NCBI GenBank assembly: GCA_015680685.1
Contig: MNCI01002045.1
Location: 573,172-637,171 of the forward strand
Length of the DNA stretch: 64,000 nt
DNA from: Gnetum montanum
Lineage: Eukaryota; Plantae; Gnetophyta
Direction of reading: 5' to 3'
The notes beneath the pieces were generated by a model. That model did not search any database, was not told the DNA's origin, and saw only the letters and a list, made by a program, of their open reading frames with translations. Shown here piece by piece: positions 1-61,678 of this stretch (the stretch's first letter is position 1; every line of letters begins with the position of its first letter). A program made the position numbers and the translations under genes.

Positions 1-2812
1 TCCAAGATGTCCTTACACATGGGATAGCACATTGGGCATCCCCATGGTATAATCTCCATGGAATATTCTCTACCTTGGATAGGGTAGGAAGCTAATTGTC
101 TCATGTAGGATCCCATCTAACTTTGGATACTGTAATAGCCAAAGTGTAACAAAAAAACAAAAACAACAAAAATAATCAAAATATTTTAAACTAATAAACT
201 CACATAACGAAAATAAAATAAAATAAAAACCATAAAAATATAAAATAAAAATGCAAAAAAATATGCTAATTATTCTTACCAACATCGGGGGCTATCTATT
301 ATAATCGATCAACCATATCCTCTACCATGCCTTATCTAAAACCTTAGCCCAAGGCTTAAAATGAAACTTAGATGTGGATGATTCTAGAGGAGTTTTATGT
401 ACTACAAAAACCATAACCATAAATATAGTTTGCAAGGATAGACATAAACATTTTTTTAAAAAATAAAAATAAAACTAAAGAGTACCTAGAAGATCATGTG
501 ACATATCCACAGGGAAAGTACCTTCTATAGACAAGTCCTCAAAGATAGAATCTATGACATCCAATGCTCCCTTGAATGTCCTCTCTTCTTCCTCCTTGCA
601 TATTTTCTCCTCTACTTTCTTACATCTTTGTTTTGCTTCCATAGGAGCTTGGGTAGCCAACCCTTGTTGTCTGCCTACAACCATGTCAAAGCCAAAACAT
701 AGAAAAGGTTAGCAAATTGTTTTGTTAAAAGTAATATAAATATATAACCACATAAAATAACATGAAAAAAATACAAAATTACAACATAAAAAATGTATAC
801 ATACATGCCTACAATAGATTGATGCATCTTGCCAAACCTGATGGATACCTTCTTATGCACTAGGTAATCAATAATAAGAGCATTTACTTCAACCTATTGC
901 ATCTTCATCTTATCTTTATCTATACCATCAACTTCTACCTGTGTCTTCTTGGCTCTCTTGGCATTACCATATGTAACATGGGGTTCAACCCCTATGTTGT
1001 TAAGGGAAGAAAATTTTGCTTCACTAAACATCTTAGTCGTAATTAACAGTGACTCTTCGATATTCTTAACTAGTGGATCTTGGACATACATGGTTAGAAC
1101 AATGTGTTTGATCCAAGGGTTGAAACATTGGGAGGGATCATGGCCCATCCACTTTTCATCTCTCATAACCACTATGAATTCTACAAACCTTCTAAAATAC
1201 ACAAGAAAGAATGTGAAATTCATATAACATATGGAGTTGATATTGTTGTAGAATTTTTAGATTTCATCCTATAACCTAGAGACCAAAAATGTAGCTTAGT
1301 TAAAATTAGTACCACTGGTAAAGACCTTTTTCATGATTCAAGCTTGTTGAACACCAATTATCTGCTTCTATGATAGCAAGATTGGAAAGATCCTAGAACG
1401 AAATAGAGGATAAGTTTCATTAGCTTTTTCAACTTTGTAGTTGCTAAGTAACAATGCACCACTACTAGAATAGTTAAGCCAATCCTCCATTTTCACTTTG
1501 TGGCTCACATCTTTCCTTACTCTTATGGAAACCTTAACACCATCAGAAGGTACTCCAAAGAGATCACTGAGAGCAGACTCACTAATGCTCAATACCATAG
1601 GGAAATCATGTACATAGAAAATGAATTTTTTGAATCCCTTATCAAAGGAATCTATCACATTTAGCATCTCTATTGATGACATTGACATACTAGAAAGCAC
1701 AAACAAGTCAAGCAAACCTGCATTAGCAATCCTCTGCTGATCTCTCTAGGAGCTCTTCTTGCTAGTCACTTCTATGATGAGTCTGCTTCACCCCACCTAA
1801 GTTGGACCTTCTCCTTCACATTACTTGACATGGTCACAATGAAAGTAGACTCACACATGGAACCTACAACACAACATAGGTAGCCCATTATCATTTTACA
1901 TAAGTAGATGATCCAAGGACATAAAGGTATAAAACTAAGGAGTAACTTGCTAGAAAATAAAAATACCATGGAAGTTGGCCACACTTGAATTAATACCACT
2001 TACCAGGCTTAGGCGAAGCTAGAACCTTAGGATGAGTGCTTGCATGTACTATTAGATCTAGGAAAATTCACCAATCATGTGCATAAGGTGTGGCCATTCA
2101 TGTGTGGTACATGTTGAAATACCAAGAAGTATACTTTCCAAAGTCTTCACAAAGTTGGTTATGCACTTTTAATGTTATAGCCTTACCTTGTGTGAATACA
2201 TGTAAGGCTACATGGGTAAAATACAAAGTTTGATCACTCTTTACCAAATACATTACGCACTTGATGCATGTAAAGAATGAAACATGATAACAATTTGAAT
2301 AAGAAACTTAGAAGCAACAAAAAATAAATAGAATGTCCAACCAAGATAGAATTTATGGTTTCAAGAGATAGAAGGTCCAAGGAGGATCTTGAAACAAACT
2401 GTTTATCTAGTGAACAATCATTACAGTGTTGTTGACATTGTATTGTGAGTACTCTAGCATCCCTTAGATTTGTGACAACTTCCACACCTCTAGAGTAAAG
2501 AAATCATTGTTTTGTTTAGTATTTTCTTAGGTATTAGAATCATCAACCATGAACCTCATGATATGACTGGAAGTTCCATGTTAAAGAGTCTTTGTAATCA
2601 TGACTACAACATTCATAGTTGAGTGTGACCACATGATCATACCATAGTGTTGGAGCAAATATGTTAAGAACTATTTTGCTCCAGGTGTAAACCACACTGA
2701 ATTATGATGGTCAATGCTTAGATTAGGGTTCAAACTATTCTATGTAGTCATCCTTATGCAACACAAGATCCCTACCAACTCCATCACTATTAGAACTGAT
2801 TTCAACAAGGCC
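1..2812 (-). pseudogene. Antisense multi-exon accessory gene of element A (FCP1/NIF-like HAD fold + plant-transposon PMD/Transposase_32-like domain), decayed
   Basis: Exons are approximately 2812-2341, ~2260-2004, 1863-~808, 674-486, 401-280 and 129-<1, mostly bounded by AG/GT. Peptides LIVMELVGILC, FLTYLLQHYGMIMWSH, YNVNNTVMIVH*INSLFQDPP, SISESALSDLFGVP and GTNFN*ATFL match the 43256-47023 copy. Confidence 0.8.
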
Positions 2813-3177
2813 CTATACATAGCCATAACACATAATCATTAAAACATAAAAAAAGACTATATGAACATTAGAATAAAGATAACATTTTTTAACAAAAATA
2901 TCCTTTTTTATAACAACATTAGCATTAGATGACCAAAAATAAAATTCTAAACCTAAAAATTTAAATTGATGCATGAATAGAAAAAATTAATACCATAGGA
3001 AAAAAATAGTTTCCCAGTTTGTAATGTTTTGGACATTTTAACAAAAACTTGACACATGAACCCTCAAAATTAGCATTATAACAAAAAATTTCCATGAAAC
3101 CAAAATTATAACAAAATTTAGGAGTCAAATTAATAGTTTTGAACCTCTACAAGTGAACTTTTTCATAGGGCTATGGT

Positions 3178-4397
3178 TGTGGATCATTGAACTTAGAAGG
3201 GGGGGATGAATAAGTTTCTTAAATTGAAATTTTTTGGGCACAACACACACACCAAATTTAACATGGTTTCCTAAATTGTGTAGTCCACACTTGGAGGGTA
3301 GATCACAAGCACACCTCTGGACTTTATTGCTCTCAAATATGGTTTTAAGGGTTCACACCTTGTACAATCTTCAAGCCTTGCTCCGGAGTGTTTTGCTATA
3401 ACATCAACCACTCAACCCCTCAAGGTCTAGTTAGGCTTGGAATGTGGTTTTCAATCTTTCACAACCTTTACAATCTTGAGCTTCACTTCAAAGTGTTGTA
3501 CCACAAAACCAAATGCCCAATCCTATAGGATCTTGACAAGCACAAGCAAGATGCCTTTCCACAAGAAGCACATCAACCTTGTAGGCCAATAAGAAAGAAC
3601 AATTACAAGGGATAAATGAAACCTAGTTTGCTGATCCTTACACTTTAAGGTACAACATACTTACAATGAACAAATGATGATACAATGAAGAGCAATAGAG
3701 ATCACAATGATTGACAAAATGATTGTACAATGATTACACATAAGCTTGTCCATTTCCCAATACATATGATGTCTTCTTATAGCTATCATGTTTTCAAATC
3801 CATACTAGAATGCATGCAATGACTGGCAAATAGTTACTAACAATTATGAAAGGCATCTTCTTTGTTCCTTAGATGTCTTGCTATATTTTCCCTCTATTCT
3901 TGAAAGACATCTTTATGAAATCTTCATTTTGGGAAGATGTCTTTGTCTTATGAAAGATGTCTTTATGAAATTGACCTTTATTTTGTGTAGAGGTCTTTTC
4001 TTGATGGAAGAAGTCTTTGCTTGAGGAAAGATTTTTGCTATTTCTTGAAGACATGTTTGCCTGTGCATCCTCCAATTCTACCAAGACATCTACTATTTCA
4101 TAGAGATGTCTTTCTTCAACCTTCCTTTACATGATGAATTCATCATTCCTTGTCCATAGCCTTAATCTTTTGTATGCTTCAATAATGAAAAATCTACTTG
4201 TCCATGTTCTTTGAATTCTTTTCTTTTAAGCTTGCCTTTTATGGATGAACCCTTAAAACCTTGTGGATGAATTTCTTCTTTTGTTTACATAAGTGCATTC
4301 CTTGTCATCTCATCTTGGTTGTACAACCACAACAACCACACACACATATCCTTTGTCTTCATTTTACTTGATATTTTGACACACCACAAGGTCCATA
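3178..4397 (-). repeat. 3' LTR of SIRE-like element
   Basis: Aligns along its length with 6809-8088; adjacent to the PPT; contains repeated AAGAC(A/G)TCTT/AAGATGTCTT motifs. Confidence 0.9.
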
Positions 4398-4482
4398 ATA
4401 TCCCCCTTTTTGGTGATGTTTAAAACTTAAGAAAATGGATTAGTGATCATACAAATATAACCATACCACTCTCCCCCTTTTT
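4398..4482 (-). promoter_or_regulatory. Polypurine tracts (two copies) of SIRE-like element
   Basis: Minus strand reads AAAAAGGGGGATAT directly before the LTR, with a second AAAAAGGGGGAGAG about 70 bp upstream. Multiple PPTs are typical of SIRE. Confidence 0.8.
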
Positions 4483-5482
4483 GAACAGTAGCAAAAAGGT
4501 TAAGGCACATAAACTAGTGAAAGAGTAATCATAAAAGCATAGTATCATAAAATAAGAATAACCAAAAATTATGGCATAATCCAAAGAAAAAAAATTTAGT
4601 AAGTAAGAATATCAATTAAAGAGCACACATTTTTCAGCACTAAGTTCCATGAGGAGTTGCCTCAAATTTTTCAAGAACTAATCTAAGCCTTTCCAAGTGA
4701 TACTCAAACTTAATTCTTGAAGTGAAGTATAAGCCTTGAAGATAAAGTAATATGTCTCTAAATCAATAAATCATTAGTAGTTTATAGTGCATGGTTCTTT
4801 TAGTGCTTAAATATTCTCTATCCTTTTAAAAACATTAGCAAAATATATCTTATATGATAAGGAGAATATAGTAATACATATTCACAATGTGAAATTAGTC
4901 ATGCCATATTTTAAATTCTTGAGCTAGGAAGTACATCTCAAGGCAAACTATGCAAAGGATGTTTCAATCAAAATTGTGGATACTTTTCCATAATTAGAAT
5001 GATCATGTGCTTGCTCATATTGTTGTAAGAAATAATATCACTATTTGCATTTTTTCATAGAAATATAGACACTTCTTACTTTAGCTTATGCTTGAATATT
5101 GAATAGGTAGGCTCTTGATATTCTTATCTTTCTCATTTTGGAATATTTTGCTATTTCATATATGTGATGTATTTATTTGTTCATGCTCTTTATGATAGAA
5201 CCTTTGATCACTTATTGCATCATTTTCAATTCTTCACTTCTCTTCATTCTCACTTATTGGTACCTGCTCAATTTCCTTACCAAAGCCTTTTTGACAAGAC
5301 TAAGCACTAATCTTGTTTTGATCATCATGATTATAGTTAGGAGTTTGCTTACAACCACAATTTTTACAAAAAAATAAAGTATTATCCTTATGATCAAACT
5401 TATTAAACTTGTCTATGCTTGAGCTTGAAGTTTCATGTGTGGAGCTTGAGTTTTCATTTGTAGCTTCCTCTAAATTCTTTGG

Positions 5483-6753
5483 CTATTTTTTAGGAGTTTC
5501 CTCTTTTTGAACCTTGCTAAAAGCCTTATTAAAAGTGGTTAGTTGTTGAATCTCAAATTTTATGTCTGAGATATCTTCTTTCACTTTAGCATGAATAGCA
5601 TCCAACTTAGAAATTACAAATTTCTTTACCTTCCTAATCAAATGCTGTAAAAGAAAAATTTCTTCTTTAAATTCACTATACCTTTTGTCACACTTACCAT
5701 CTTGTTCAACCACATGTGAGAAATTTTCATCTGTAAGTGCCATGCATATGAGATGTGAATTTTTGAAAGAATTGCATGCTTCTTCTTCAGTTTTCTCACC
5801 ATCATTCCAACTTGTATAAAATTTGGTCTTTTTTAATTCCTTATCATTGCATCTATTCTTTGGTTGTATCTTATGATCACTAGGATAACTAGGATATTTG
5901 AAGGCCATATGGCCTCTTCCTTCACAAACCCAACATTCTATGGAATGAAAATCTAAGTTAGAATTTAAAAAATTTCTACCTCTTTCTCTACCTTTGAGTA
6001 GATTGGGCTTTTATTGTGATTCCCCCTTATTTCTTCTTGTTAGTAGTTGTTGTGAGAGAAGGGCAATCTCATCTTCACTGCCCTCATCATGTTCATTGAA
6101 GTCCTCCTTGGAGGCAGTCTTTAGAGCAACAGGTCTTTGTTGGATTGCTTCTTTGATTATGAGATTCATTTCATAAGCAATTAGAGCACTTTGAAGATCT
6201 TCAAATTTTAAGATTGAGAAATTTTTGATCTCCTCCATAGCCATGACCTTTGGTTTGAACTCCAATTGTAGAGTTTTGATCATTTTGACAATGACATCAC
6301 TTTTGGGCCAAATTTATCTATTCCTATTATAGCTAGAACAATCTTTGTTTTCTCACCTTCTCTCATTTTGAGTTTATTGTATTCACTTTGTAAAACTAAT
6401 AGTTTCAATTGCTTACCAATAGATGTTCTTTCATAAGTAGTTTCTAAAGTTTTCCAAATTTATTTGGCTATTTTACATCTTGCTACTCTATTAAATTTAT
6501 ATTTTTTTAATGCACAATATAAAAATTTGTTTGCTTTTGAATCAAACATGAACTTATCCTTTTCATCTTGTGTCCATTTGTTATGAGGCTTAATAATGTT
6601 GATGGCACTATTGATAGGTAAACTGTAGCCTTTAAGGATTGAATCCCATACTTCAAACTTAATGGATTCGAAGAACCCTTGCATTCTAGCTTTCCAATAG
6701 GCAAAGTCAAATCCATCAAACATAGATGGATTTGTATAAGATGTCCCCTCCAT
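5483..6753 (-). pseudogene. gag: Copia-type gag, decayed
   Basis: MEGTSYTNPSMFDGFDFAYWKARMQGFFESIKFEVWDSI, FKPKVMAMEE..LKFEDLQSALIAYEM and zinc-knuckle remnant CWVCEGRGHMAF; contains stops and frameshifts. Confidence 0.9.
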
Positions 6754-6794
6754 TGTTCACTATTGAAGTTGATGATGACAAAGAAGAGTACCAA

Positions 6795-6806
6795 GCTCCT
6801 ATACCG
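6795..6806 (-). promoter_or_regulatory. Primer binding site, tRNA-iMet, degenerate
   Basis: Minus strand CGGTATAGGAGC versus canonical TGGTATCAGAGC, 2 nt inside the 5' LTR end. Confidence 0.7.
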
Positions 6807-6808
6807 CT

Positions 6809-8088
6809 TGTTGATCATTGAAATTAGAAGGAGGGAGATGAATAAGTTTCCCAAATTGAAATTCTTTGGAAAAAGCACACACACCAAATTTAACATGGGT
6901 TTCCAACTTGTGCATTCAACACTTAGAGGGTAGATCAAAATCACACCCTTGGACTTTATTGCTCTTAAATATGATTTGAAAGACCCACACTATGTACAAT
7001 CTTCAAGCCCCTCTTTGGAGTGTTGTGCCACAACACCAACCACTACACCCTGTAAGGTCTAGTTAGGATTGGAATGTGGTTTTGAGGCTTTCAAAACCTT
7101 TATAATCTTGAGCTCCACTTCAGAGTGTTGTGTTGCAACAACAATCACTTAATTTCGTAGGATCCTGACAAGATCAAGAAAGATGCCTTCCCGCAAGAAG
7201 CACATCAACCCTATAGGGCAACAAGGGAGAATAATTACCAGGGATAAATGTAACTTATTTTGTTGATTCTTGCACTTTGAGGTATAGCACACTTTTCAAT
7301 GAATAAATGATGATATAATGAAGATCAATAGAAATCACAATGATTGAAAAAATGATTGTATAATGATTACACATAGCTCATTTCCCAATACATATGATGT
7401 CTTCTTATAGTTGTCATGTTTCTAAATCCATGTTGGAACTCATGCAATGGCTAGCCAACTATCATTACTGGTTATGGAAGACATCTTCCTTGTGCAATGG
7501 CTAGCTAACTATCACTAACAGTTATGAAAGGCATCTTTCTCATGCCTAAGATGTCTTTCTATATTTTCCCTCTATTTTGGAAAGACATCTTTATCTAGGA
7601 AAGACATCTATTTGAAATCTTTGTTCTAGGAAGAAATATTTGTCTGATCGAAGACGTCTTTTTGAAACTATCTTGCATTCTATGAAGACGTATTTGCCTA
7701 ATGGGAGACATCTTTACCTAAGGAAAGATGTCTAATATTTCTTGAAGACATCTTTACCTATGCATCCTCCAATTCTATCAAGACATCTACTGTTTGTTAG
7801 AGATGTCTTTCTTTAATCTTCCTTTGCATGATGAATTCATCATTCCTTTTTCACAACCTTGATCTTTCACATGCTTTAATGATGACAAATCTACTTGTCC
7901 ACATTCTTTAATTTTTTTTTAAGTTTTCCTTTTGTGGATGAACCCTTGAGATCTTGTGGATGACTTTCTCCTTTTGTTTACACAAGTGCATTCCTTGTCA
8001 TCTCATCTTGGTCCTACAACCACAACAATCACACATAATTCATTTGTCTTCATTTTACTTGACATTTTGACACGCCAAAAGGTCCACA
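6809..8088 (-). repeat. 5' LTR of SIRE-like element
   Basis: TG...CA termini; homologous to 3178-4397; followed by TSD ATGGT. Confidence 0.9.
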
Positions 8089-8667
8089 ATGGTTAACAAG
8101 AAATAGCAAGCTTAAATGTTTGAAATTTGAGTAATCTGGAAGAAACGTTTTGCTAGTTTGTGAGCTTAGATATTCCCAAACCTCCCCACTAAAATCCCAA
8201 AACCTTACACACATTGTGGTATCAAACATGAATAATACCAGATGCTAATCATAGGGCTAGGGAAAATAAAAGATAATCAATAGACCAACCCTAGTATCCA
8301 ACAATACTGAGCATAGCCAAAACATCAAAATTTTGCATCCAAATATGGCTCTTCTATGTTATTTTTAGTAATCTTGGGCAAGATGTGAGCTGCAACACTA
8401 GAGTTTGATGTTCAAGAAATCTACTTGAAAGCTTGAACATTGAGCATATGATCCCTAGAGCTAGAAAAAAAAACCTTTTAATGTGGAACTAGGTTTTACA
8501 AGGTAATATGAGCTTAATAAGTTGGGTGTTTCAAAAATCTCAAACTTTAGAGCTTATACATTGGCTTTTGAATAATTTTTGGTGGATGTGGATCACACGA
8601 GACTTAGCCAAAAGCATTTACAATGTATTATATGCTGAAGGCCAAGCTCCACATGCTAGGTAGTTAT

Positions 8668-9712
8668 TGATGTCAACACTCCCATGCTCTCATGGGGCCA
8701 TGATTATCAACGTCTCTATCTCTCTCTCTTAATAACCACAATAAAAATCATGCAAGTAGTAGGCATTTAAACTATTAGGTAACAATTATTAATGATGACG
8801 ATTAAAATTATTAATGATGGAGGTTACAATTATTAATGATGATGGTTACAATCATTGATGGTGGCAGTTATAATTATTAATGATGATGGTTACAATTATT
8901 AATAATGATGGTTACAATTATTAATAATGATGGTTACAATTATTAATGATGATGGTTACAATTATCAATAGTGGTGGTTACAATTATTAATGGTGGTAGT
9001 TACAGTCATTAATGGTAGACATTTCAGAAGTTATGGACATAGTGGGCACTTAAATTAGAGAACGTAGCCATCATTATGGATGGTCGCAGCAGCTATAAAA
9101 TGGAATCTGGAGGGGGGCTCTAGAAGGATCATGGAAGGGTGGAAAGGAGTCCCAGTTTTTTTTCTTTTCTTTTCTTTACAGGCTTCGAGAAGGGTCCAAG
9201 GTAGGAGCCAGTGGCTCAAAATTGAATCCTTGGGGGTCTTCTCGGCGACGGTAGGAGCTTGTCATAGTGGTGCAGACGTGGGTGAATGATCTTCCTCTCT
9301 ACGGCGGTGAACAAAAGGCGGAAAACGGTGGCAGACTTTGAGGATTGTAGTTGCTGCCCTGTACAGACTGGAATGGGAAATCTCTCTCTTTCTCTTTCTC
9401 TTTCTCTCTCTCCCTCTCTCGTGGTGATCATGGTCTTCCTGCCTAGCAATGGATACCATCGCTAGTCATGGATCAGCAGCATCAGCGAGACCAGGGAAGA
9501 TTCAATTCTTTTAATTACTTATTGTATTGAAGAAAATTATTTAATTTAAATTCCAGATTTCTTTCTAGTTTCTTATTTGCAAAACGCCATGTAGCCCTCT
9601 CCAGTTGAGACTATTCTTGGGTTTCCGTACCCATATGGGAGGCACCCTAGGCAATAGTCTCCTAAAATGAGTTTTCTTTCCTGGTGTTGGTGTGACCAAA
9701 ATTTATGCATCA
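8668..9712 (+). repeat. 5' LTR of element C
   Basis: Terminal inverted TGATG/CATCA, TATA-like CTATAAAA near 9093, CT-rich tract 9380-9420, PBS 9 nt downstream. The start is inferred from the terminal repeat only. Confidence 0.65.
8778..9016 (+). repeat. 22-bp tandem repeat (GGTTACAATTATTAATGATGAT, ~11 copies) in LTR of C
   Basis: Directly visible units, e.g. starting at 8822, 8844, 8888, 8910, 8932 and 8954. Confidence 0.95.
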
Positions 9713-9721
9713 AGACCTTTT

Positions 9722-9738
9722 TGGTGCTAGAAGGAGGG
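9722..9738 (+). promoter_or_regulatory. PBS complementary to tRNA-Asn(GUU) 3' end
   Basis: TGGTGCTAGAAGGAGGG; plant tRNA-Asn ends ...CCCTCCTTCTAGCG-CCA (recalled, 1 mismatch). Confidence 0.85.
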
Positions 9739-10420
9739 CCTTTCCCCAACCTTTTGTTTATCAGCTTTTCTTGTCATTTCTCTTACCTTTATTATCCCAT
9801 TTTCTGAAATATTTATTTTTTGTCCTTTTCTAGTCCCTATTTTTATTTTTTAAAAATTTCCTTTTCCTTGTTTCAAACTTGTTTTATTTAAAATTTCCAT
9901 TTTCAGCCATTGTCTTGAAAAATATTCTAAAATAATTTTCAAGCCTTTTATTTCTTATTCTCAGAAGTTCCTTTCCTAAAAACTTTTGGGTCTCATCACC
10001 CATTTTTCTTTAATCTTTTCCTTGTTATTTTTTCTTAATCCTTGTTTCCAATCCCATTTTTGAATCTATGTTTTGGCAGTCCTTACCATAGTCCTAGGTT
10101 AGGTAAGGTGGTTTTATTTGATTATGAAATTTTAAGTTTATTTTCCTAAAATCTTGCATTTTACTATTTTCCCTTTTAATTTTATAAGTATTGCAATTTT
10201 ATACATTTATTTTTCTTTTCAAAAAAAAAAAGTTTTATTTCAATATTTTCTTTTCTTTTTACGCAATTTCATAGTTTCATTCTAAGAATTATATTTTATA
10301 GTTCTATTTATGAGTGAACTCTCCTCTGCTTCTAACTGACCAATCACTCGTCTCTTCGCATTAAGGAAACAACAAGCCTCACATTTTTCAAGTTTTATTC
10401 CTAGGAGAGCCTAGACTAGG

Positions 10421-12828
10421 ATGGCAGGCAATCAACCCCCAGCTCCCTTGGTTAGTAACCCCTTAAACTTTACTAACTACCGTGAAATTCCAAAGTCACT
10501 CCAGAATATAAATTTGTTCTACAACCCCACAAACCCTTCTAGTGATGCCCGCCAACATATACAATGTTTTGAAACCTTAATAGGCATTTACAACATTGTC
10601 CAAAATGATGTGGCTTGTAGGGTATTTGTGACAACATTCAAAACCAAAGCAATCCAGTGGTTCTTAATGCTTCCATTAACTCATGGCATGAGTTCAAAAA
10701 TAATTTTTTGACCCAGTTTGACAAATTCACAAGCCCTGTCATAACATCTAGTAACTTCACCAAATTAAGAAAGCTACTTGGGGAAAATGTTAGGGATTAT
10801 AACCTTAGATTCCTTCACCTGTCGGCCTATGTGCCAAGTGAGATGTGTCCATAACCCGATGGCATCCTCAACTTTTAACTCTCTACCATTGACCCATTCT
10901 TTGCCTATGCCATTAAATCAGACCCTAACATAATAGAAATATAGGGAGCAATGGCTAAAGTTGTGAAGCTAGAACCAATAAACCTTATGAATAACATTCA
11001 AACTCAATTCAGAATGATGAGTGTTAGCAATCCTATGCAACATAGTCCTCTACCTCTACCAACTTTCCCAATGACCAACACTATGTTCCAAACTCTCGTT
11101 CCCCTTCAAATGACTCAACCTACAAATAGCTATTTTCAAGGTCCCACATTTTCTCCATTCCTACCATCTAACACTGGTTTGAATGAGGATCAATCAAACG
11201 CCTTAGTTCAGTCCATCATAAACCCAAATGAGGTATCTAATCCTATTGAACTCCCAACTCAAACTCAAGATCAAATGACCCAAATATTAACTTCACTTAA
11301 AGAACTTTCCAACGAAGTAGTTTAACTAAAGTGAAACAACAACAAGGGTCCTATACAACCAGAAAAGTCAAGTTCATCAACAAATGATGACTATTTTCGC
11401 CTCCATAACACTAGGCAACATTCTGAGAAGACTTGTCCCCAATTTTTAGCATTATTTGGTGATAACACCCAAGGTCAAGAAAATGGGAAATCTCCTATTA
11501 TGGCCCTTAACCTTCCTCATGAAATAGAAAATGAAGAGGTTTTCTCATTGGAGCAAGTTATGGTAAACAACCCCAACCCACCTAATGCTTGCTACCGTAG
11601 ATTTAAAGACATCATGAACAACACACAACAAAAAACTAGGAATGACCCTTACACTTCTCCAAACAGAAAAGCTCCTAGTCAAAGTAACACAAATACTCAA
11701 ACTGAGTCATCTCAAAAAAATGCTCCACAACAATCAAATCCACCTTCTATACTTAGAAGAACTCCACCTTAACAAGAAGTCAAAAGTGTATGTAAGACTT
11801 ATGATCTAGTTGAGGATTTGAAGAAAACCAAAGCTAACATCTCAATGTATGATCTTTTACAATTTAATGAAATGAAAGAGGTGATACAAAACATAGTTCA
11901 TATGCTAGAAACTAGAAAAGAAACAACCCCAACCCTTGAAAGGCAAGTTCACTTCATGGAAAGTCCTAACACGCTATCAGTACACAATGCAAATAATTCC
12001 ATGATGAATAAGAAAGAGAAACTTGTTTTCCTAACAACTCTAATTATTTTAGCAAAGAATGTTCACAATTGTTTGATGGATTCTGGAGCAACTGTTAGTG
12101 TCATGCCACTTAAGGTATGTAAGACTTTAGGAGCACAAATGATACCACAAATGAAAAATGTGATTCAACTTGATGGGTCCAATGTACCTGTAGTAGGGTC
12201 ATTAAAAGGAGTGAAAGTGCAACTTAAACAATACCCTACATTCACATGTTACACAGATATCCTAGTAGTTGACATGTCACCTACCTATGGTGTGCTCCTA
12301 TCTAGGAATTTTGGAGCCAAGTTTGGGGGCTTCTTTAGGTCAGATTTCTGAGAGCTATTAATCCTTATCAAAGAAAAATTTGAGTACATGACTATACCTC
12401 AAGAACCCTTCTACAAATAAGTAGTTACAACCTTGGATCAACAAAATCAATCTTTGGAAGATCAAAACGCTAATCTTTATGTTGGGGTTATTAAGGTTGA
12501 GCGTAGTGAACATGTTGAGAATGACTATGTGAGTGGAATTACAAAAATAAATCCTATCTCTCATGTAGATCCCATCCAATCCTATCAAAGTTCTAGAGAA
12601 GGTGAAAAAAGCTATGGAGACATCCTACCTTATCAAAAACATGATGGATTTCATCTAAGTGATCCACCACCTTTAAGGGAAGATAAAGATATAAATAACA
12701 TGCTACCTCTTAAAATAGTTCAAGGTGTGCGAAATTTTAATGACACATTGATGGAACATTCTTCTAGAAAGGCTATATCTGATGTCCCACCAAGACCTAA
12801 GCCTATCATTGAAACTAATCTCAAATAA
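10421..12828 (+). pseudogene. gag: gag-aspartic protease of element C, decayed
   Basis: DVACRVFVTTFKTKAIQWF (retrotransposon gag) and NCLMDSGATVSVMP...YGVLLSRNF (retropepsin); split into several ORFs. Confidence 0.9.
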
Positions 12829-12839
12829 AGACTTGATAC

Positions 12840-13150
12840 AAGCAAGTTAAGATTAGGTCTTGATTTTCATAATCTTAAGCATCGAAAAATTGTTAAACAA
12901 TGTCTTAACAGGAAGTACATTGGTGAATTCTTTAAGATAGGAGATCTAGTCTTTGAAAAAGGTAAAACATTTGACCAAGCAAATCTTCAAAGTAAGTTCT
13001 CTCTTATGTGGTTAGGCCCATTCTGAATTAAAGATGTCATTGGCCCCAATGTGTACAAGGTTGCTGATGTGCAAGGACATAAGTTACCCAGAAATTTTAA
13101 TGCATTCCATCCAAAGAATTTCTACTTAGGTGCCCCACGTGGACACCTAG
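12840..13150 (+). pseudogene. Integrase C-terminal (GPY/F) remnant of element C
   Basis: FKIGDLVFEK...SKFSLMWLGPF*IKDVIGPNVYKVADVQG...NAFHPKNFY. Confidence 0.8.
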
Positions 13151-13570
13151 TAGATTCTTAGTTGCATATTTTCTTCCTCTTCATCATGCATTTCATTTGT
13201 ATATAGTNTTTATACTATATATTTCAATAATGCATTGATTCTTCCCAGTCTTTTTCAAGGTTTTAGTTTGTATAGTTATGTTGGATTATGGAGTATGAGA
13301 TTTGTGCTAATTGATCATGTAATCATCATGATCATGTGAGTGTAGGATAGGTGATGTTGGAGAATGGTTAGCCATAATCACTAGGTGACCTTGGAAAATC
13401 CCACTTTCCCTCTCATAAGCCCTAGCCCTCAAGTGTGATGATCCATGGCTACCTTGTGAACAACGGGGTGAAGTGTGTTCATTTGCACTTGAGAACCCTT
13501 AGCCACCTAGGAGACTTGCTATGATGTTATCAAATTGTAATCTTTGTCCCACCTACTGGGCACATAGGTT

Positions 13571-14348
13571 CCACATGCTGACTAGTGTATGGAGTAGTGT
13601 GTGGAAATTTTTTACAAGTTTCTACTACTCAAAATAGCTTAAAATTTGACTAGTGGAACTTTGAAGATCTAAAGTGGAAGATAAGCCAATATTTGATCTT
13701 TTTTATATTCTTAAAAGCTAGTTTTGAGCCTTACAAGTTGGCTAGCATGCGGGACAATGTGTGGCCTTCAAATAAGATCTTACATAGCTTTTTATGGTGT
13801 TAATATAGTTATTTTTGACACAAAACACTAGACGTAGAACCAAAGACCTAGAGTAGCAAAAAGATTAATGGAAAAACCCCACAAGCTAAGATTTTAGCTT
13901 TCATACACTGTCAACATAGCTGAAACATGTTTGCTAGCATGTGGACTAGCTTGTGAGCCATATATAAGCCTTTTTCTAGTAAAAAATATTCTCAGAACTA
14001 CCATACAAGATGAAAAACCCTAGCTGTTGACATGAGAAGGCCTAGGAACCAAGAACTAAGTCACAAGCCTTCATAAGCTAGCTCTCTAGCTCCTACATGT
14101 TGGAAACCCATGTAACAAAGTGTGAGCTAGTGTGTAAGGCAAGAACAAGTTCAAAATTAGTCAAAAAAGCTTAAATGCTATATTTAAAAAATAAAAGGAA
14201 GCTTCAAATACCTAACACCCTTCTCCAAGACCTAGGCACTACTACAAGAGCTAGAAGAAAGCTCACAAACAAGGTAAAAGGCCCCCACAAGCTAGTTCAT
14301 GAGCCCTACATGATGACACCTAGGCTTCAAATGCTAGGTAGCATGTGG
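13571..14348 (+). repeat. Spaced 22-bp palindrome array in spacer of element A
   Basis: Cores at 13571, 13731, 13923, ~14093 and 14327 (e.g. CCACATGCTGACTAGTGTATGG) are mostly derivable by C>T/G>A from CCACACGCTGGCCAGCGTGTGG. Confidence 0.65.
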
Positions 14349-14773
14349 ACCAATGTACAAGGTAAACAGAAATAACAAATCAAGCTCAAACATTGCTAAA
14401 GCAGGTTCAACATGCCAAAAGCTTAACTCAAAGGGGTCACAAGCTACTCTAGTGGTTCCTACAAGCCAAGAACTATGCATAAATTGTTACCATGCTAAAA
14501 GAACAATTCATTCACATTGGGGAAAATAAGTTTTATCTTTTTCTAAATATTGTTAACATAAAAAATCACTTTTCTAGTAGTTTACTGCTACTTTTCAGAA
14601 GCTTTTTTTTTATTAATTTTTATTATTTTTTATTTTAACAATAAAAAATTTATTTTATCTTAATTTTTAACTATTTTGAAACTTTACAACTTTTTTCCAT
14701 ATCTTTTTACTAATTTTGATAGTTTACCACATATTTTCCTTAGTTTTTTTTTTTGCCAATTTGAAGAATTAGC

Positions 14774-16066
14774 TGTAACGATAGAAGACGTCGGTGGCTA
14801 GAAACACCAAGAGGTTTTCGGGTGCATAGCCTTACCCTAGATCCATGTGAGGGCCATGCTGGATAAAATAGAAACAGGGTGCCCTGAACAGTTTGATCGA
14901 TCAGACATGGACTTAATCGGTGTACAATAACCCTTTTCCAAACAATAAAAGAAAACACAATGTGCATAGTAGTAGAAATGTGCTAAAGTGCGTAAAAGGG
15001 TAGTGAACATGATTTAATGCTTAACAATGCCAAATAAATACTATGATTAGCCAAAAAGAGATTTTGAATAGAAAGATACACCACCCTAAAAAAGGGTACA
15101 GGTATACAAAGTGTACAATAGGCATAGTAGGAGCAGAATCATAGCCTCGGTGGTATCGGGCTGTGAAATCTGGTGCTCACTGTGATAAATTGTGCCTCCT
15201 GGGTCTGTGGTCATAGTATACCATGTGATGTTGCACATTGTGATAAAATGTGCCTCTTGTGTTAGTGGTCATAGTATACCATGTGATGTAGTTGTGCCTC
15301 TCTGTCGGTGTGGTATGCTTTGGGTCTCATTCGCCCATGGAGCTAAGTGCCAAAATGCTAAAATGCCAAAATGCCAAAATGGAAATGCCAACTGCTTTTT
15401 TCCAGCGAGGAAATTGAAGCCTTTCCCCCTTTTTCTCCTCATTTTTTAAAGAGGGTGCAGAGGTATTTATAGGGCTAGGGTTAGCACAAAATGCAGATTT
15501 GGCTCCACGTGGTAGTGCAGTAGGTAACAACATGTAACAACAAGTAACAACGTGTAACAGTGCGTAACAGCATAGCGTAACGGGGTGCTACGCTACGCAC
15601 TATAGCAGGGTGCTACGTTAGCACTGTAGCAGGGTGCTACGCTATGCTACGCTACGCAGCATAAGAAGGTGCTATGCTAGCAGTGTAGCAGGGTGCTACG
15701 CTAGCACTATAGTACGGTGCTACACTATACTACGCTACTCAGTGTAGCAAGGTGCTATGTTATGCATTGTAGTAGGGTGCTACGCTACATAGTGTAGTAG
15801 GGTGCTACGCTATGCTATGCTATGCAGTGTAGCAAGGTGCTACACTATGCATTGTAGTTAGGGTGCTACGCTAGCACTATAGCAGGATGCTACACTAGCA
15901 CTGTAGCAGGGGCACTATGCTATGCTACGCTACGTAGTGTAGTAAGGTGCTACGCTAGCACTGTAGCAAGTTGCTACACTATGCTAGGCTATGCAGCATA
16001 GCAACACGTAACACTTAGCTAGATTTGCAGTTGCAATGCCGAGACCCGAACTTTTGTGGTGTTTCA
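14774..16066 (-). mobile_element. Solo LTR H (TGAAACACC...GTTACA family)
   Basis: Minus-strand termini TGAAACACCACAAAAGTTCGGGTCTCGGC...TATCGTTACA resemble the G LTR termini. Perfect TSD TTAGC at 14769-14773 and 16067-16071. Confidence 0.93.
15575..16003. repeat. ~24/34-bp tandem repeat of dyad GCTACGCT-AGC-A(G/C)TGTAGC in solo LTR H
   Basis: About 15 visible units of GGGTGCTACGCTAGCACTGTAGCA with optional extra GCTAC/GCTAT pentamers. Confidence 0.92.
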
Positions 16067-16744
16067 TTAGCAACCTATTTTTTTCAAGTTTTTACCTATT
16101 TGGAAATTTATAATTTATAATTTATTTTTACTAGTTTTTTCTTTTAAAAAATATTAACTAAATTTAAATTATGTTTACCATTTCTAGCCTGGTGCAACCT
16201 CAAATGACCAAGTTTGACCTAGTAAACATCATTTGATATCATTTCTTGATGACATTTTATACCATTTTTGATACCATTCAACCTTATTTGACCCTCGACA
16301 TTATTTTGCCTCATTTTGGCATCATTTGGTATCATTTGATGTCATTTTTCACAATTTTGACTTGATTTGATCATATTGGAGACCTTTGAATATCATTTTC
16401 TTAATTTAACATTATTTCTTCATTATGAAAACTTCATTTGATGTCTCTTGTGTCATTTTGAATCATTTAAACCCTTTTTGATGTCATTTTTTATAATATT
16501 ATATCATTTTGACATCATTTAGCCTAATTTTGACACATTTTAATGATATTTGACCTTGTTTCATCTTCATTTGGCATAACTGAATATCATTTGGTATTAT
16601 TTTCAATTATTTATGATATTAATTGGCCTCATTGTACTTTGTTTTACCTTGTCTTGACATTATTATGCTCCATGGTGTTTTATTACTATGTCATTTTGCA
16701 TTAGTTTAGCATTGTTGAGAAAATCTTATTGTACAAATGCCACT

Positions 16745-19700
16745 TAATGTGCTTTTGGTTGATGTATAGGGCTAGAACATGGGTACATGGACACAATTTA
16801 GCTTACATTTGAACTTGAGTAGACCCTACGGTGACATGGAGTGTTGCTTGAATAGATATTCAAAACCCTTGACCTTGAGGTTGGTGACCTTACTGAGGAC
16901 TTTGTAGCTAAGTTTCCTATCATAACACACAATGGTAAGGAGAAAATGCTAAAACTAATTTCCTCACTAGAACAACAACATGCTTAAGACATCACCAAGG
17001 TCCTTTAAAGCAACATTAAGACCTTTGCTTAGTTGTACAAGGATATGCTAGGTCTTGACCCATGATTAATGCAACATAACATATTCTATCCTAGTGTCAA
17101 ATAAAAGGTTCACAAAATTATAATAAACTTAGCCGTGGAAGTTTGTGATGAGATCATGAAACTTTACCAAGCTAGTTTCATCCAAGCTATTGATTATGTT
17201 GATTGGGTGTCTAACATAGTGGTAGTCCCCAAGAAAAATGGGATCATTCATATTTGTATAGATTTTTGAGATCTCAATAAGGTAATTATTAAAGATGATT
17301 TTTTATGACCTAGCATTAATCAACTTATTGATACCATGACTGGACTTATCTTGTTGTTCTTCATGGATGGATTCTTAGGATACAACCAAGTTAGGATCAA
17401 TCTAGAGCATTAACTCTACTAGACTTGCATGACTCCTTGGGAAATATTTTGTTATATCATGATGCCATTTGGTCTAAATAATGTAGGCATGACCTATCAA
17501 TGAGCCATGACCTACATATTTAGTGATTACATGCTAGGGTTGCTTAATGATAATGCTGATGACATAGTGGTCAAGTCCAATATAACCAATGACCATGCAC
17601 ATGATCTTAACTTAGTACTCCAATAGTGCTTATAGTATGAACTTATACTTAATCCTAAGAAGTATGTCTTTGACATTAAAATTGGTAAAATGCTTAGTTT
17701 TGTATTATTTAAAGTAAGGATATGTGCCAATATTGATTAGGTTAAGGACATAACCAACTTGGTAGTACTGACTAATCTTAAGGAGCTATGAGGACTAAAA
17801 GGTAGATTGTAATTTATTCATAGATTCATCTTAAGACTTATAGATAATCTACAACCCATGAAACACTTATTTGAGAAGGTAGTTCACTATGAGTGGATTG
17901 ACCAATGCTAAGAAGTCTTTGATAATATTAAGCAAAGGTTAACTCAACTATGCATTGTGTACCCACCATAGAAGGAAAAATCATTTTATATATACCTTGC
18001 AATATATGATGTGTCCACAGCCTCTCTACTTTGTCAAAAAGAAGATGATGGAGCAGAGCTACCCATTTACTACTTGAATCATGCATTAATAGCCTACAAA
18101 ACCTTATACCTAGAGGTTGAGAAATATTGCCTAGCCCTAGTCTTCTCCTTGAAGAAGTGGAGATATTACTTTTTCTAGAAGCCAAGTCAACATCATATGT
18201 AAAGATAATGTACTAAGATCCAACTAATATATACAAGAGTAGCCAAATAGCTCAGTGAAAGGTCATAACCGTTAAGTTTGAGTTGCATTACATCTCCCAA
18301 GCCTTAACAAAAGGTCATGTTATAGCCATGTAACTTACAAATTCCTCGATTGAGGACAACACATCCATCAATCCAAAGTTTCCCTATGAACACATCAACA
18401 TTGTTAATGAAGTACCCAAAGGTTATGAGGCCATCATGCACTTTGATGGAGCTTCAATTTCCCATGGAGCTAGTGCTGCTACAATCATAATATCATCATT
18501 TGGTGAGACACAAACTTTGACTACTGTTTCCATTTTGATGTACTAAAAATATAGTAGAATATGAATGGTTAATAAGAGAAATGATGGTAGCTCATAGCCA
18601 AGAAATCAAAATTTTGATGATAAAGGATGATTCACAACTCATGGTTAACTTGGTGAATAAGGTCTACACATGTAAAGCCAAACATTTACAACCTTAATAT
18701 GACCTAGTCAAGAACCTCATGCTACAATTTACAGATGTTGTCATTAAACACATACCTTGAACTAAGAATACCTTAGTTGATGACATTGCAACCTTGGCTC
18801 TTAGTGTAACACTAGATGTGTTTAGCAAGTTACCTTCCTTGATGGAGAACTATGCTCTTTCCATCACATAGAACACTAAAGGCACCTCTATAGTGACTAT
18901 TGACAATGTTCCTCAACAAGAGTGGTATGACAATACCAAATTTCATCCAATGCATGGTGAAACTCAATAGAACCTAACTACTTTTCAAAAGAATGATGTA
19001 CATAAAAGATCAAGATAATATGTCATTACAACCGATAACACATTATTTCAAAGGTCCTATGATGGCATATTATTGCTGTGCTTGAGAAAAACTAAAGCTC
19101 ACATAGTCCTTCAATAGGTTCAAAAAGGTGAATGTGGAGGACATATAGGACCTAGAGACATGGCCATAAATATTAGATGATTAGGATACTATTGACCCTA
19201 TATGGAAAGTAACTACTTGCAAAAGGTTAAAACTTGTGATACTTGTTAATGTCACAATAACTTAATACATGTACCATCAATTGAGTTACATACTAATAAG
19301 ATCATATGGCATTTTCAACCATGGGAAATTAACATTATTGGACCTATAAGGCCTAAGACTTTCATAGAGAAAAGCTTCATCATCTTCAGAACTAAATATT
19401 TTACAAGGTGGGCTTAAGCTATTCCAGTTAGGAAAATAATGTTTCAACATGTTTGTAAATTCATATTAAGCATACCCTTAACTATAGTCATAAACAATGA
19501 ACCATAGTTTAGTAGCTAGAAAACACAAACCTTTTATCAAAAATTAAGCATCAAATATTTCTTTTCATCATTATACTACCCACAAGCCAATGGACCTGCT
19601 AAAGCTAGCAACAAGATCATCATAAATCTTCTAAAAAGATGCCAAATAATAATAGATGAAAGTAGCATGAACAACTAGTGCACACACTTTGGGCATACAT

Positions 19701-20148
19701 AAAAACCTTTACAACTATAATTAGAGCCACCTCATATAGCCTTGTTTAGGAATTTGAAGCTATTTTACCTCTTGAATTATAGGTGCCATCCTTGAAGGTA
19801 GCTCTATATGATTTAATTAATGATGAGTAGAACAAGGAGCTATGTATCATTGACATTAATTTAGTGAAGGAGTAATGAATACAAATCCTTGCTCATGTCA
19901 AATGAAACCAAGAGAGGAAAAAACAATAGCATCTTTAGGATATAAATAAATAAAAAGTCATGAAATATGTCCTTATCCTTAAAGCCATTTGTGAACATGC
20001 AGACAAGTTCTTGGCCAATTGGGAAGGACCTTTCTTGATCACCAAAGCTTATGTTAATGGAGACTAAGCATTCAACCTTGCAAATATGGATGGGAATGAA
20101 TTGGCCAACCTGGACAACCATTTCTATCTCAAACCTTATTATATTTAA
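16745..20148 (+). pseudogene. pol: pol of element A (RT-RNase H-archaeal-type RNase H-integrase), heavily decayed
   Basis: WVSNIVVVPKKNG..ICIDF, FMDGFLGYNQ, MPFGLNN, aRH MHFDGAS...EYE...DSQL, integrase CGGHIG, YYPQANGPAKASNK, WEGPF. Confidence 0.92.
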
Positions 20149-21255
20149 CACTAACATATTCTTCTATAGTTCTTTTTTTTTAATTTTTAGGTATGGATGA
20201 ATGATTAATATCAATGATCTTTGTAGCCTACAAAAAGTGAGCTAGTTTGACCTCTCATCTCTCTCTTTTTGGAATAACAAGATACTACATACTTTATATA
20301 AGTCTACAAAACAAAATATAGATTTCTCATGTGATACAAATTATAACCTATGGTGGCCTGTATTCTACTTGTTTTCTCATATTACTGTATGCAATCTTTT
20401 ATAAGCACATGAATTCTTTAACGTATCTTCTTGTCCTCTTGGAGTTGTGCTTGTAGGATGAAGCATAAGGTCATCACAAGGATGCAACTCATCATGGTAG
20501 TGAGTTATCACATGACCTTGATATAAGAGATTTAGGTAGCTTGTCCAATTTTGCTAAGAGTGTTTACCTTACATCACTTCAGTTACTCCTTTTGAGTCAT
20601 AATCCTATAGCCAAATTACAACCTTCATTATCCTAATAACAATGAAAACCTATGTTTGACATTCATGTATTGTGATCACATGACATATCATTTGAAATAC
20701 TCCACCATCAAGTTCATTGAATGTAACACATCTCATATAATGAAAAAACAAACAAAATTTATCCTTGACAATAAAACCCAATGAAGGTTTCACCCAAAAA
20801 AAAAAAAGGAAAATCAAATTACCAAGAAATCCAAGAGGCCAATGAAGCCTAAAGTCAAATTAAAGGCTCCAAAAAAATAAACGAAGAAGCCTGATGGACA
20901 AAGAAGCCCATGAGTGGAGTGTTGGTTCCTCTAACACATTATTAAATAACCAATAGTTTGAACACAAATCATGAAGAACTCCTCGATTAACAAGCATGTC
21001 ACCACCATACCGTAGCCATGATGTCAACATTTGGAATCTATTATTGACCCATGTGATTATTTTTTGATAATCAATATAGCCTTTACCTCATCTCAAAATT
21101 ATGACGTTTAATCATGATCTTAGTTTGTCATTGTGAGAAATTTTGAGCATGGTTTGATAGCTATAGAAATAAGCATGGAGAAGGAGCATTGGTGATGAAC
21201 CTATGGTGGTGTTTCACATTCTTCAATGATCTCTTAGGTTAATCTTCAAAACATC

Positions 21256-21271
21256 AACAAAGAGGAGCCAA
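21256..21271 (+). promoter_or_regulatory. PPT of element A
   Basis: AACAAAGAGGAGCCAA immediately before TGAAAC; equivalent to B PPT 56933-56945. Confidence 0.75.
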
Positions 21272-21744
21272 TGAAACATCTCAAACAAATTCAAATAGAA
21301 GATAACTTCATTGTAAGAACTTTTAAATCATTTTTCATTGGGATGAATTTGAGACTTTCAGGGAAGTGCAAATCTCTAAGAGTTTACAACCATTTCTTTC
21401 TTAGAGTAGATCAATGTACCAGAGAAAACTGTGACAAGAAAAGTCCAAAGAGTATATCATATGAGATATTAGAAGTTAGATCTGATTGTAGAACACATCA
21501 TGCTATTATCATCAAATTTCAAGAATTTTATTTAAGCTCTCATGTATTGGAAGCTTACAACTTATATTCTCTAAAATTTTGTTTCAATGAATTTTTCTCT
21601 ATTCTAATACAAGTTTGTAGTATCTATTGTTTGCTACACTTTCCTTATATTTTTCTATACTTGAATCTAGCATTTAGACTACCATTTCATACGCTTTTAA
21701 TTTTTATTTCATATTTTGATAGAAAATATTTAGTTCCTTAATCA
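21272..21744 (+). repeat. 3' LTR of element A (right end tentative)
   Basis: Starts TGAAAC after the PPT and ends ...AATCA where D coding remnants begin. The partner LTR is outside the window. Confidence 0.55.
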
Positions 21745-38038: not shown

Positions 38039-38823
38039 CCTTCCCTCAAATTATCAGCCCAAAAAACCTATTTCAAAATTTTGCAAAATATTTTCAAACA
38101 TTTTTTTAAAAACCAATTATTACATATTCTAAACCTTAAAACCTACAAACCTTGAACTTCAAAAACCAATGTTGGTGTCCTAGTTCCCATCCACAATACC
38201 CAACATAGTTATGGTTGGTGATTTGAGTGTTTACTACATTTTCAAAGTAGCTGCTAGATACTTTGAAACTATTGTAGTCAATACCAAAACCTCTAATTTT
38301 TGCCAATTGAAACCTATGTTTGACACCTAACAACCACTGTAGATCATTTGAAAATCCAAATGTACATGTTGTGTAATTTTGCAGGACAAAGATAATGTAG
38401 ACACTACTAGGACTATAGCATAGTCTTTAGAAGATCCAAGATTTTGACAATTTATTGCTTAAAACCAATGTAGACATACTTTGAATGAAAACCCCTAGCT
38501 TGGTTTTACCAAGTAAAAATCCATTTTCCACCATCTACCTTAGTGTAGTTGGCTAGAAAATACTATGTTCTACTGCACACTTCATAGCGTAGATCTTGCC
38601 TAGTGTAGTTGGTGTTACCAACTTGAACACCATAACACCATTTTTCTAAGTGTAGTATATACCATTTATACTATAGTAGCAATGTCAACCATTTTTTCCA
38701 TTTATAGTCAACTACTCCATTGGGCAATCCCAACTTACTAAAATTTTTACTTAAAATAGTAAAATGTCTAAAAAAACATCTTTGATAATGCCTTTCATTA
38801 AGTCCGCAATTTTGCCTATAGAT

Positions 38824-42417: not shown

Positions 42418-42687
42418 TGTATCTTATCCAATTTTCTCACCCTTGCACCTACAACCATGTAACCTATTTTTTCTATAACCTTCTTAGCCTAGTTGAAACA
42501 TGTTTCTTGTATGCATTATTTTTTTACTTTTTTTTTTACTTTGTTTTAACCTTTACTTTGCACATAGCCTATGGTTTACTCTTGTTTAAAAATTTCTTTT
42601 TCAACATAGATAAAAAATTTAAAACTTGAAAAACTCATAAAAATTTTAAAAAACATAAAAAATGATAAAAAATTTTCTTTAAATCAT

Positions 42688-42945
42688 ATGGCCCACCATG
42701 GCCTAAGATTGACAAATCACAAAACATCGTATGACTTGCCATGGACTAAAACTAGTAAGACATTACATGGCCCATCATGGACTAAAACTGACAAAACAAC
42801 ACATGGCCCATTGTGGCCTAAAATTGGCAAAACATTGCATAGCCCATCATGGCCAAAAATTGGAAAAACATTGCACAACCCACCATGGCTTAAAGCATGG
42901 AAAACATCCCATGGTCCACCATTGCCTAAAAGTGACAAAACTCTT
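42688..42945 (+). repeat. 33-bp tandem repeat (~8 copies) downstream of the gag-PR stop
   Basis: Unit ~CATGGCCCATCATGGACTAAAACTGACAAAACA(TTG); produces the periodic shadow ORFs (HGPSWTKTDKT). Confidence 0.92.
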
Positions 42946-43255
42946 ATGACCATTACAACCTAGTTTATATTATGGTAGTTTTCATAGTTAACCAATGTAG
43001 CCTATGACATAAATGAAAAACATAAATATTAAACATATGTTAAAACATAAAACATTAAAACATTTAAATGAAATTAAAACTTAAAAAGAATAATATTCTA
43101 AATGTTTGTCACATAGCATGACAAAAGTCTAAACATTACATGAAACAATAAATTGTCTATCAATTGATCAAATTGCTAACACTAGCTAATACCTCACAAT
43201 AATGTCATCAACTAAAATTGTAGAGATAACTATAGGGAATGACCAATAGATGGTA

Positions 43256-46173: not shown

Positions 46174-46209
<36 letters not shown>

Positions 46210-56932: not shown

Positions 56933-56945
56933 AAAGAGGGAGCAA
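56933..56945 (+). promoter_or_regulatory. PPT of B
   Basis: AAAGAGGGAGCAA directly before the 3' LTR. Confidence 0.85.
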
Positions 56946-61436: not shown

Positions 61437-61442
61437 GTTTTC

Positions 61443-61459
61443 TGGTGCTAGAAGGAGGG
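61443..61459 (+). promoter_or_regulatory. PBS (tRNA-Asn) of G
   Basis: TGGTGCTAGAAGGAGGG, 6 nt after the LTR. Confidence 0.88.
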
Positions 61460-61678
61460 CCTAGGCTCCGATCGATATTTTTCGGGTAGCCCTGTTAGCG
61501 ATTTATACCCAAAACCGTAAACGTAATACCTCTAGGGAAGTTTACGACAAATCGTGTGGTGTAGGTCGGTCGCAAGAACGATTCCTTTGGAATCCTGCAA
61601 GGTAGAAAGCCTATTTGCGATCTTTTTGTCAGACACCTTTTAGATCCAGTCATTCGTCGCCGTTAATCCACTTTATTG

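Follow-up and report, generated by a model that had tools for sequence, protein, structure and literature searches.

Organization of the locus

The window analyzed here, 64,000 nucleotides of a Gnetum montanum contig (MNCI01002045.1), is AT-rich, with old plant retrotransposons nested in one another. A multi-exon gene lies on the minus strand at its start, and a second copy of this gene lies on the minus strand inside a complete plus-strand element further along. We refer to the two copies, and to the elements around them, as A and B, respectively, and list the features of the window in Table 1. The genes and pol regions of A and B are strongly depleted in CG (observed/expected 0.05–0.15) and CHG (0.21–0.32); element E, at a CG observed/expected of 0.79, is much younger.

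Table 1. Features of the window, in order of position
Feature	Position	Strand	Remarks
A exon 6	1–129	−	Cut by window edge; homology to B reaches ~60
A exon 5 (GMVEDMVDRL..IAPDV)	280–401	−	DNA alignment to B
A exon 4	486–674	−	Charged; DNA alignment to B
A exon 3	809–1863	−	Largest; helical domain, weakly like PMD/DUF1985/Transposase_32 proteins
A exon 2 (KSDQ...FGKYT)	2004–2266	−	tblastx and DNA alignment
A exon 1	2357–2812	−	FCP1/NIF-like (HAD) domain without catalytic aspartates
Copia-type element	3178–8088	−	LTRs 3178–4400 and ~6809–8088 (K2P 0.19); target duplication ATGGT
Element X	8667–13160	+	5′ LTR with 22-bp tandem repeats; gag and protease run into integrase C-terminus
Likely solo LTR	14773–16012	−	24/59-bp repeats; TTAGC on both sides
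A element	16317–21860	+	Pre-RT non-coding end, RT, RNase H, archaeal-type RNase H, integrase, 3′ region, 3′ LTR from ~21272
Broken Transposase_32 ORF	23480–24199	−	E 3.6e-7; directly after truncated protease of D
Element D	29527–24821	−	LTR and gag related to B; truncated protease
B element	36713–58389	+	Complete, 21.7 kb; Tat/Ogre-type Ty3/gypsy
B LTRs	36713–~38018 and 56946–58389	+	LTR comparison
B gag	39787–40911	+	Domain scan
B protease	to ~42480	+	Domain scan
Likely sense-strand intron of B	42480–52372	+	~9.9 kb, protease to RT; contains antisense gene
36-bp tandem repeat	42683–42941	+	Left side of B cargo block
B gene copy	43256–47023	−	Seven exons, ~980 codons summed
B exons 1–3	47023–46571, 46462–46217, 45979–44927	−	DNA alignment with A
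B exons 4–6	44794–44610, 44515–44378, 44240–43440	−	DNA alignment with A
B RT	from 52373	+	Followed by RNase H, archaeal-type RNase H, integrase
B archaeal-type RNase H	54233–54517	+	RVT_3 match, E 1e-6
Element E	~59900–64000	+	Long open gag; protease-RT interval beyond window

Element B has a polypurine tract, LTRs that are 0.22 apart, and a perfect 5 bp target duplication (GTGGC) on both sides, and it inserted into the integrase of another element, C. Its domains run in the order gag, protease, a 9.9 kb gap, RT, RNase H, archaeal-type RNase H and integrase, and a coding stretch upstream of gag (38755–39165), where Ogre elements have a separate sense ORF with a PMD, has no Pfam match and may be the gag start. 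The archaeal-type RNase H was recognized in B and also in A (18533–18859, E 2e-10) as an RVT_3 match between RT_RNaseH and rve, an arrangement that passages of PMC6317226 describe for Ogre/Retand elements. Of the features that mark the Tat clade, this domain is thus present in A and B, while the two LTRs and the 5 bp duplication are seen in B, the 5′ half of A being outside the window.

The 9.9 kb between protease and RT is likely the element's own intron. T content jumps after the protease frame, an acceptor-like AG (52371–52372) is found where the pol frame resumes, and Ogre elements are described as having an intron at this place (PMC4408406, in part). No protease-RT splice joint of B was found in the RNA runs examined, of which 2–26% of each was read. 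The 36 bp unit repeated on the left side of the cargo block recurs in direct orientation at 51938–52008, so that it frames the block, and could mark the point where the block entered or permit its loss by recombination. Loose repeats of ~380 bp are also present within B at 49.5–51.6 kb. Element D, with its Transposase_32 ORF, was considered as a case of another cargo in the same slot and was rejected, since D breaks off inside the protease.

The pol of A is the closest relative of B's within the window, with 68% DNA identity over 4.5 kb and an RT that is 69% identical in amino acids, versus 44% for C, and the two elements have their pre-RT non-coding end and LTR end in common. The A gene lies upstream of this pol with ~13 kb of nested insertions between them, and its position and its likeness to B lead us to assign it provisionally to the A element. 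The Copia-type insertion carries gag but no pol, and is a non-autonomous element. Element X is without RT or RNase H and no 3′ LTR was found for it, leaving its right border missing, and the end of the likely solo LTR matches the LTR end of young element E (61293–61437). Alignment gave no B match for A 2813–3177, 8094–8666 and 13160–14774. Between integrase and 3′ LTR, A 20372–21293 and B 56054–56967 are 66% identical, which is above the level of the antisense gene exons; a stop-poor minus-strand frame (20608–21111) lies in this region of A, and clear codon periodicity was not found in it.

The initial annotation had made the antisense gene an old, selected component of this retrotransposon lineage, and our results support this; of the three outcomes named as speaking against it, none was seen as far as each could be checked. 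In B the gene lies inside a complete element. C, whose protease-RT gap is T-rich and ~1 kb long, is without it, indicating that the gene belongs to the A/B sublineage and not to all such elements.

Exon structure of the two gene copies

Standard blastn matched 58 bp between the two genes and nothing more. With tblastx, A 2835 to 254 and B 47046 to 44352 gave collinear minus/minus matches at 28–55% identity, and a global DNA alignment, on which the exon-intron junctions of both copies were set by eye, placed six exons and five introns in register. A canonical GT or AG occurs in at least one copy at 11 of 11 homologous junctions and in both copies at 7 of the 11 (A: acceptors 5/6, donors 3/5; B: acceptors 6/6, donors 4/5). 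Intron phases are 2,1,1,1,1 in both copies when frameshifts are allowed for, and because an acceptor precedes A exon 1, the gene must start further upstream. The six minus-strand exons reported earlier as pairing with the B gene therefore agree with it in order, splice position and phase, and the two peptide pairs quoted for them (GMVEDMVDRL/GMVENMIDWLQ and KSDQ...FGKYT/LGRYT) were found where they had been placed.

The likeness between the copies is in the exons. Against shuffles, the DNA alignment scores of exons 1–6 have Z values of 15.5, 1.9, 32.5, 7.1, 9.8 and 4.5 (five of six above 4), whereas the cores of introns 1–5 are near shuffle level, at −0.5, 2.0, 2.7, 0.0 and −0.2, which bears out the description of the introns as dissimilar. 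Exon 2 matches weakly as DNA, but as protein it is 31% identical over 64 codons (E 8e-6). Matching introns are no more identical than non-matching intron pairs, with likeness confined to the intron ends, and lengths are similar in four of five (A/B: 90/108, 140/237, 134/132, 84/94 and 150/137). The introns are T-rich, with a GC content of 0.17–0.34 versus 0.36–0.47 in exons; chance likeness of AT-rich DNA as the source of the match was ruled out by the shuffles and by the frame controls given below.

Purifying selection on the gene

Both copies are broken: the 678 aligned codons include 19 stops in A and 9 in B, and frameshifts occur as well. Removing 26 columns with stops left 652 codon pairs, over which amino acid identity is 36%, so the proteins are indeed only moderately similar, and identity at codon positions 1, 2 and 3 is 0.54, 0.67 and 0.40. 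The dN/dS of these pairs is 0.28 (bootstrap 0.19–0.39), with pS near saturation at 0.70 and saturated bootstrap replicates dropped from the interval, and lies well below the value near 1 against which the claim of an old, selected gene was to be checked. The RT-RNase H of the same elements gave 0.185 (277 pairs). Since both copies have also decayed neutrally since insertion, dN/dS during the active life of the gene was probably lower than 0.28.

As a guard against CG/CHG deamination, transversions were counted alone, and differ at 0.34 of 80 fourfold sites versus 0.15 of 652 second positions, so deamination cannot account for the pattern. The gap between second and third positions (observed 0.23–0.27) was reached by none of 200 neutral simulations put through the same alignment procedure (maximum 0.15). 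The other five frames have dN/dS values of 0.41–1.69, the lowest being that of the mirror frame, and 29–68 stops, versus the 19 and 9 of the chosen frame. Stop counts alone are no proof of selection, as the neutral simulations contain as many stops (3.2%) as A carries. Stop density in the gene (28 of 1356 codons) is not above that in pol (18 of 586; p 0.19), as expected if both decayed after insertion. Taken together, these results show that purifying selection acted on the gene before A and B decayed. That two copies so far apart retain this pattern is direct evidence of selection on an antisense extra gene.

At synonymous third positions, A and B differ at 0.47 of 165 sites in the gene and at 0.33 of 542 in pol (p 0.001), in totals that include blocks read in the wrong frame, one from the gene and at least one from pol. 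The silent sites of the gene being more diverged, gene and pol may have had different histories; this would fit faster change of the gene, recombination between families, or an A gene that came from another B-like element.

The encoded protein

Exon 1 of A matches the Pfam NIF family (PF03031) at E 3.2e-4 and 20.8 bits, just under the cut-off of 21.8, and B matches more weakly. NIF is found in 29 of 30 Atlas neighbours of exon 1, at 0.90, and its best PDB match is the phosphatase UBLCP1 (E 0.13). At the place of motif I (DxDx(T/V)), as placed by the register of the Pfam NIF match, A has ELVGI and B has KLVGL, and the later acidic pair (DD in UBLCP1) lies opposite non-acidic residues in both copies. 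With both acidic motifs missing from both copies, catalysis was probably lost before A and B split, and the sequences point to a gene that probably encoded a disarmed, non-catalytic phosphatase-like accessory protein. The phosphatase-like domain gives experiments on function a starting point.

For an 80-residue piece of exon 3 from B, the nearest named Atlas clusters are DUF1985, ATHILA, PMD and Transposase_32 (0.78–0.82). Exon 3 had no Pfam match at E 10 and did not match the Transposase_32 ORF in the window, and we treat its PMD likeness as a lead. The end of B exon 6 is basic and, by eye, coiled-coil-like. No relatives were found in word-based searches with B exon 1 and the exon-3 alignment against longer proteins or with the exon-1 alignment at near lengths, nor when 1.84 billion representatives were searched with a 230-position profile of exon 3, nor with an 81-aa piece in one metagenome scan; the queries being decayed, these negatives are weak. 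Two AlphaFold models had a mean pLDDT of 35 and 33, too low to use.

Further copies and transcripts

Absence of the gene from other family members would have spoken against an old component, and many further copies that keep their introns are present in DNA runs. In runs X1, X2 and X6 (organisms A, B and C), 1434, 1224 and 1340 contigs matched A 1–3170, mostly less than 90% alike and with up to 44–48 at single exon positions. Summed depth reaches 300–975 over exon parts versus 16–70 upstream and in intron 1, with singly listed contigs at a depth of 4–13, and is not to be equated with copy number. Pieces ~82% alike span A intron 3, one of them swapping the intron interior for 87 other letters, and at the non-canonical intron-3 donor position of A, 28–35 contigs per run, most of the copies, have a canonical donor. 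In the protease-RT gap of B, every 600 bp bin is multi-copy in X2 (165–2343, with 1674 over exon 3), compared to 1105–3426 in gag and 5000–35000 in pol. No clean exon-exon joint was present among the joints listed (15 of 229 on A, 15 of ~1400 on B). Dozens of diverged, intron-keeping copies of the gene are thus present in the DNA runs of three organisms, on contigs too short to show their retrotransposon context.

In RNA runs X11, X14 and X15 (organism B) and X16 (organism A), of which 2–26% of each was read, reads on both strands were sparse, nearly all less than 95% alike, and no splice joint was found in sense or antisense. No run was listed as containing the B gene, and the oligo-dT RNA runs examined held no abundant close transcript of it. 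A 36-base stretch of B exon 1 (46828–46863) has 8–10 reads each in X14 and X15 that are unlike the gene on both flanks, and these are probably from an unrelated transcript.

Origin and role of the gene

Antisense introns are not spliced from sense genomic RNA, and so can persist through retrotransposition. We think it likely that the six exons at the start of the window are the decayed second copy of a selected multi-exon gene, carried antisense between protease and RT by a Tat/Ogre-type sublineage, likely within the element's intron, and probably encoding a non-catalytic phosphatase-like accessory protein. Unspliced sense RNA would be packaged and copied, so that the whole block travels with the element, and the spliceosome would not read the antisense introns on the sense strand. 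Splicing of the sense intron would in turn remove the block from the gag-pol message, and a 10 kb cargo would therefore cost the polyprotein nothing. The gene itself may be transcribed from a promoter of its own within 47.4–52 kb of B and be spliced by the host.

Multi-exon genes are usual in Mutator-, CACTA- and Helitron-type transposons, and the block could be, or have begun as, a DNA transposon of such a type in the protease-RT interval, with A and B holding either independent insertions or a long-standing passenger, and with selection stemming from the transposon's own life. The more diverged silent sites of the gene, the missing block in C and the repeated 36 bp unit framing the block in B would all suit such an origin, as would the occurrence of PMD domains in MULEs (PMC9289625, in part). 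Yet the framing repeats are direct instead of inverted, no convincing inverted termini were found between the flanks (old termini could have decayed), and the gene pieces scanned contain no transposase domain. Also against it are the shared slot and orientation of the block in A and B, which have RTs with 69% identity, and a decay of the gene that equals that of pol, and we regard this origin as improbable; an ancient DNA-transposon origin followed by retention would merge with our main explanation. Still further from what we observe is the capture by A and B of two paralogues of an intron-containing host gene family, in which case selection would have taken place in the host, and the elements would have amplified the captured copies as neutral passengers. 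NIF-domain genes are ordinary host genes, antisense capture keeps introns, and no expression was seen in the RNA runs examined, all of which count in its favour. Two captures into one slot are unlikely, however, and no host-like relative turned up in the word-based protein searches, the HMM search of 1.84 billion representatives or, beyond the distant NIF match, the PDB, nor an abundant close transcript in oligo-dT RNA, making host capture very improbable.

A gene that is element-borne and selected could also have a different role: it could serve a structural or RNA-related purpose, such as assembling particles or exporting or protecting unspliced RNA of 20 kb, or its phosphatase fold could still have been active. 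With an intron of 10 kb, an element depends on export of its unspliced RNA; in retroviruses, such RNA is handled by antisense and accessory proteins (PMC7264820, in part), and decay could mask catalytic residues. Against this, both acidic motifs are missing at the aligned places in both copies, and the antisense product known from Grande, GENE23, is described as nuclear (PMC7264820), and we find these roles somewhat unlikely. Under the selected, non-catalytic accessory gene that we favour, our tentative suggestion for function, built on analogy with nuclear GENE23 (passages of PMC7264820) and with PMD-phosphatase modules (passages of PMC7156037), is that the protein may combine a dead FCP1/NIF fold, which would bind a phosphorylated partner and not cut it, with a helical, PMD-like domain and a basic coiled coil, and may act in the nucleus to help a long element be transcribed or escape silencing. 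More speculatively, and in our view doubtful as a whole, the lineage may have made its protease-RT intron a cargo bay and long kept there a seven-exon antisense pseudo-phosphatase-PMD-like gene whose element-encoded product would read phosphorylated forms of RNA polymerase II or of chromatin proteins, a selfish mirror of the host's PMD-phosphatase silencing module.

Comparison with known systems

Within the main texts covered, a spliced antisense gene in the protease-RT interval was not reported, and neither was an LTR element with a NIF domain; extra-ORF domains are the subject of Additional file 4 of PMC6317226, which may bear on how new these features are. What antisense extra genes of plant LTR retrotransposons do, and where they come from, are described as open questions in passages of PMC7264820, which call for the study of antisense and spliced transcripts.

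The closest known genes are the antisense additional ORFs between pol and 3′ LTR (aORF-3R), among them gene23 of maize Grande and those of rice RIRE2, Silene Retand, PvRetro13 and fungal Boty (brtn), as described in parts of PMC7264820 and PMC11963269. The Grande gene has a promoter of its own and a nuclear product (PMC7264820), and antisense accessory ORFs are nearly universal in Retand according to passages of PMC11963269. Like them, the gene described here is antisense, and is kept across many copies in Tat-clade elements. Unlike them, it lies upstream of RT, between protease and RT, has at least seven exons and carries a NIF-like domain, while the aORF-3R genes follow pol and are presented as ORFs; neither PMC7264820 nor PMC11963269 uses the word intron in its main text, and the part of PMC8365987 that cites brtn gives no intron data. 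Extra ORFs with PMD or PMD-coiled-coil domains are described in Tat lineages III–V (PMC4408406; PMC6317226), Ogre being Tat IV, but in the passages concerned they are 5′ sense or 3′ antisense, with none placed between protease and RT, and the PMD in our gene is a candidate.

The exon 1 domain has a weak but concordant match to FCP1/SCP/UBLCP1 HAD phosphatases (PF03031) over most of its length, and differs from them in having lost the catalytic aspartates in both copies. An enzyme-derived extra domain is also found in the orchid Tat/Ogre-type element Gypsy_Pa_2799, which captured an m6A demethylase; that domain is reported as recent and functional (PMC9289625, in part), whereas the one here is old, multi-exon, antisense and apparently non-catalytic. 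In Arabidopsis MAIL3 and MAIN/MAIL1-PP7L, a transposon-related PMD occurs together with a phosphatase-family domain, either in one protein or as its partner, and takes part in controlling transcription and silencing, but passages of PMC7156037 describe these as host genes whose domain is of the PPP family, not the HAD/NIF family, and which silence transposons rather than travel in one. Compared to all of these systems, the gene is distinctive in its protease-RT slot, its seven-exon layout in two old copies and its NIF-like domain.
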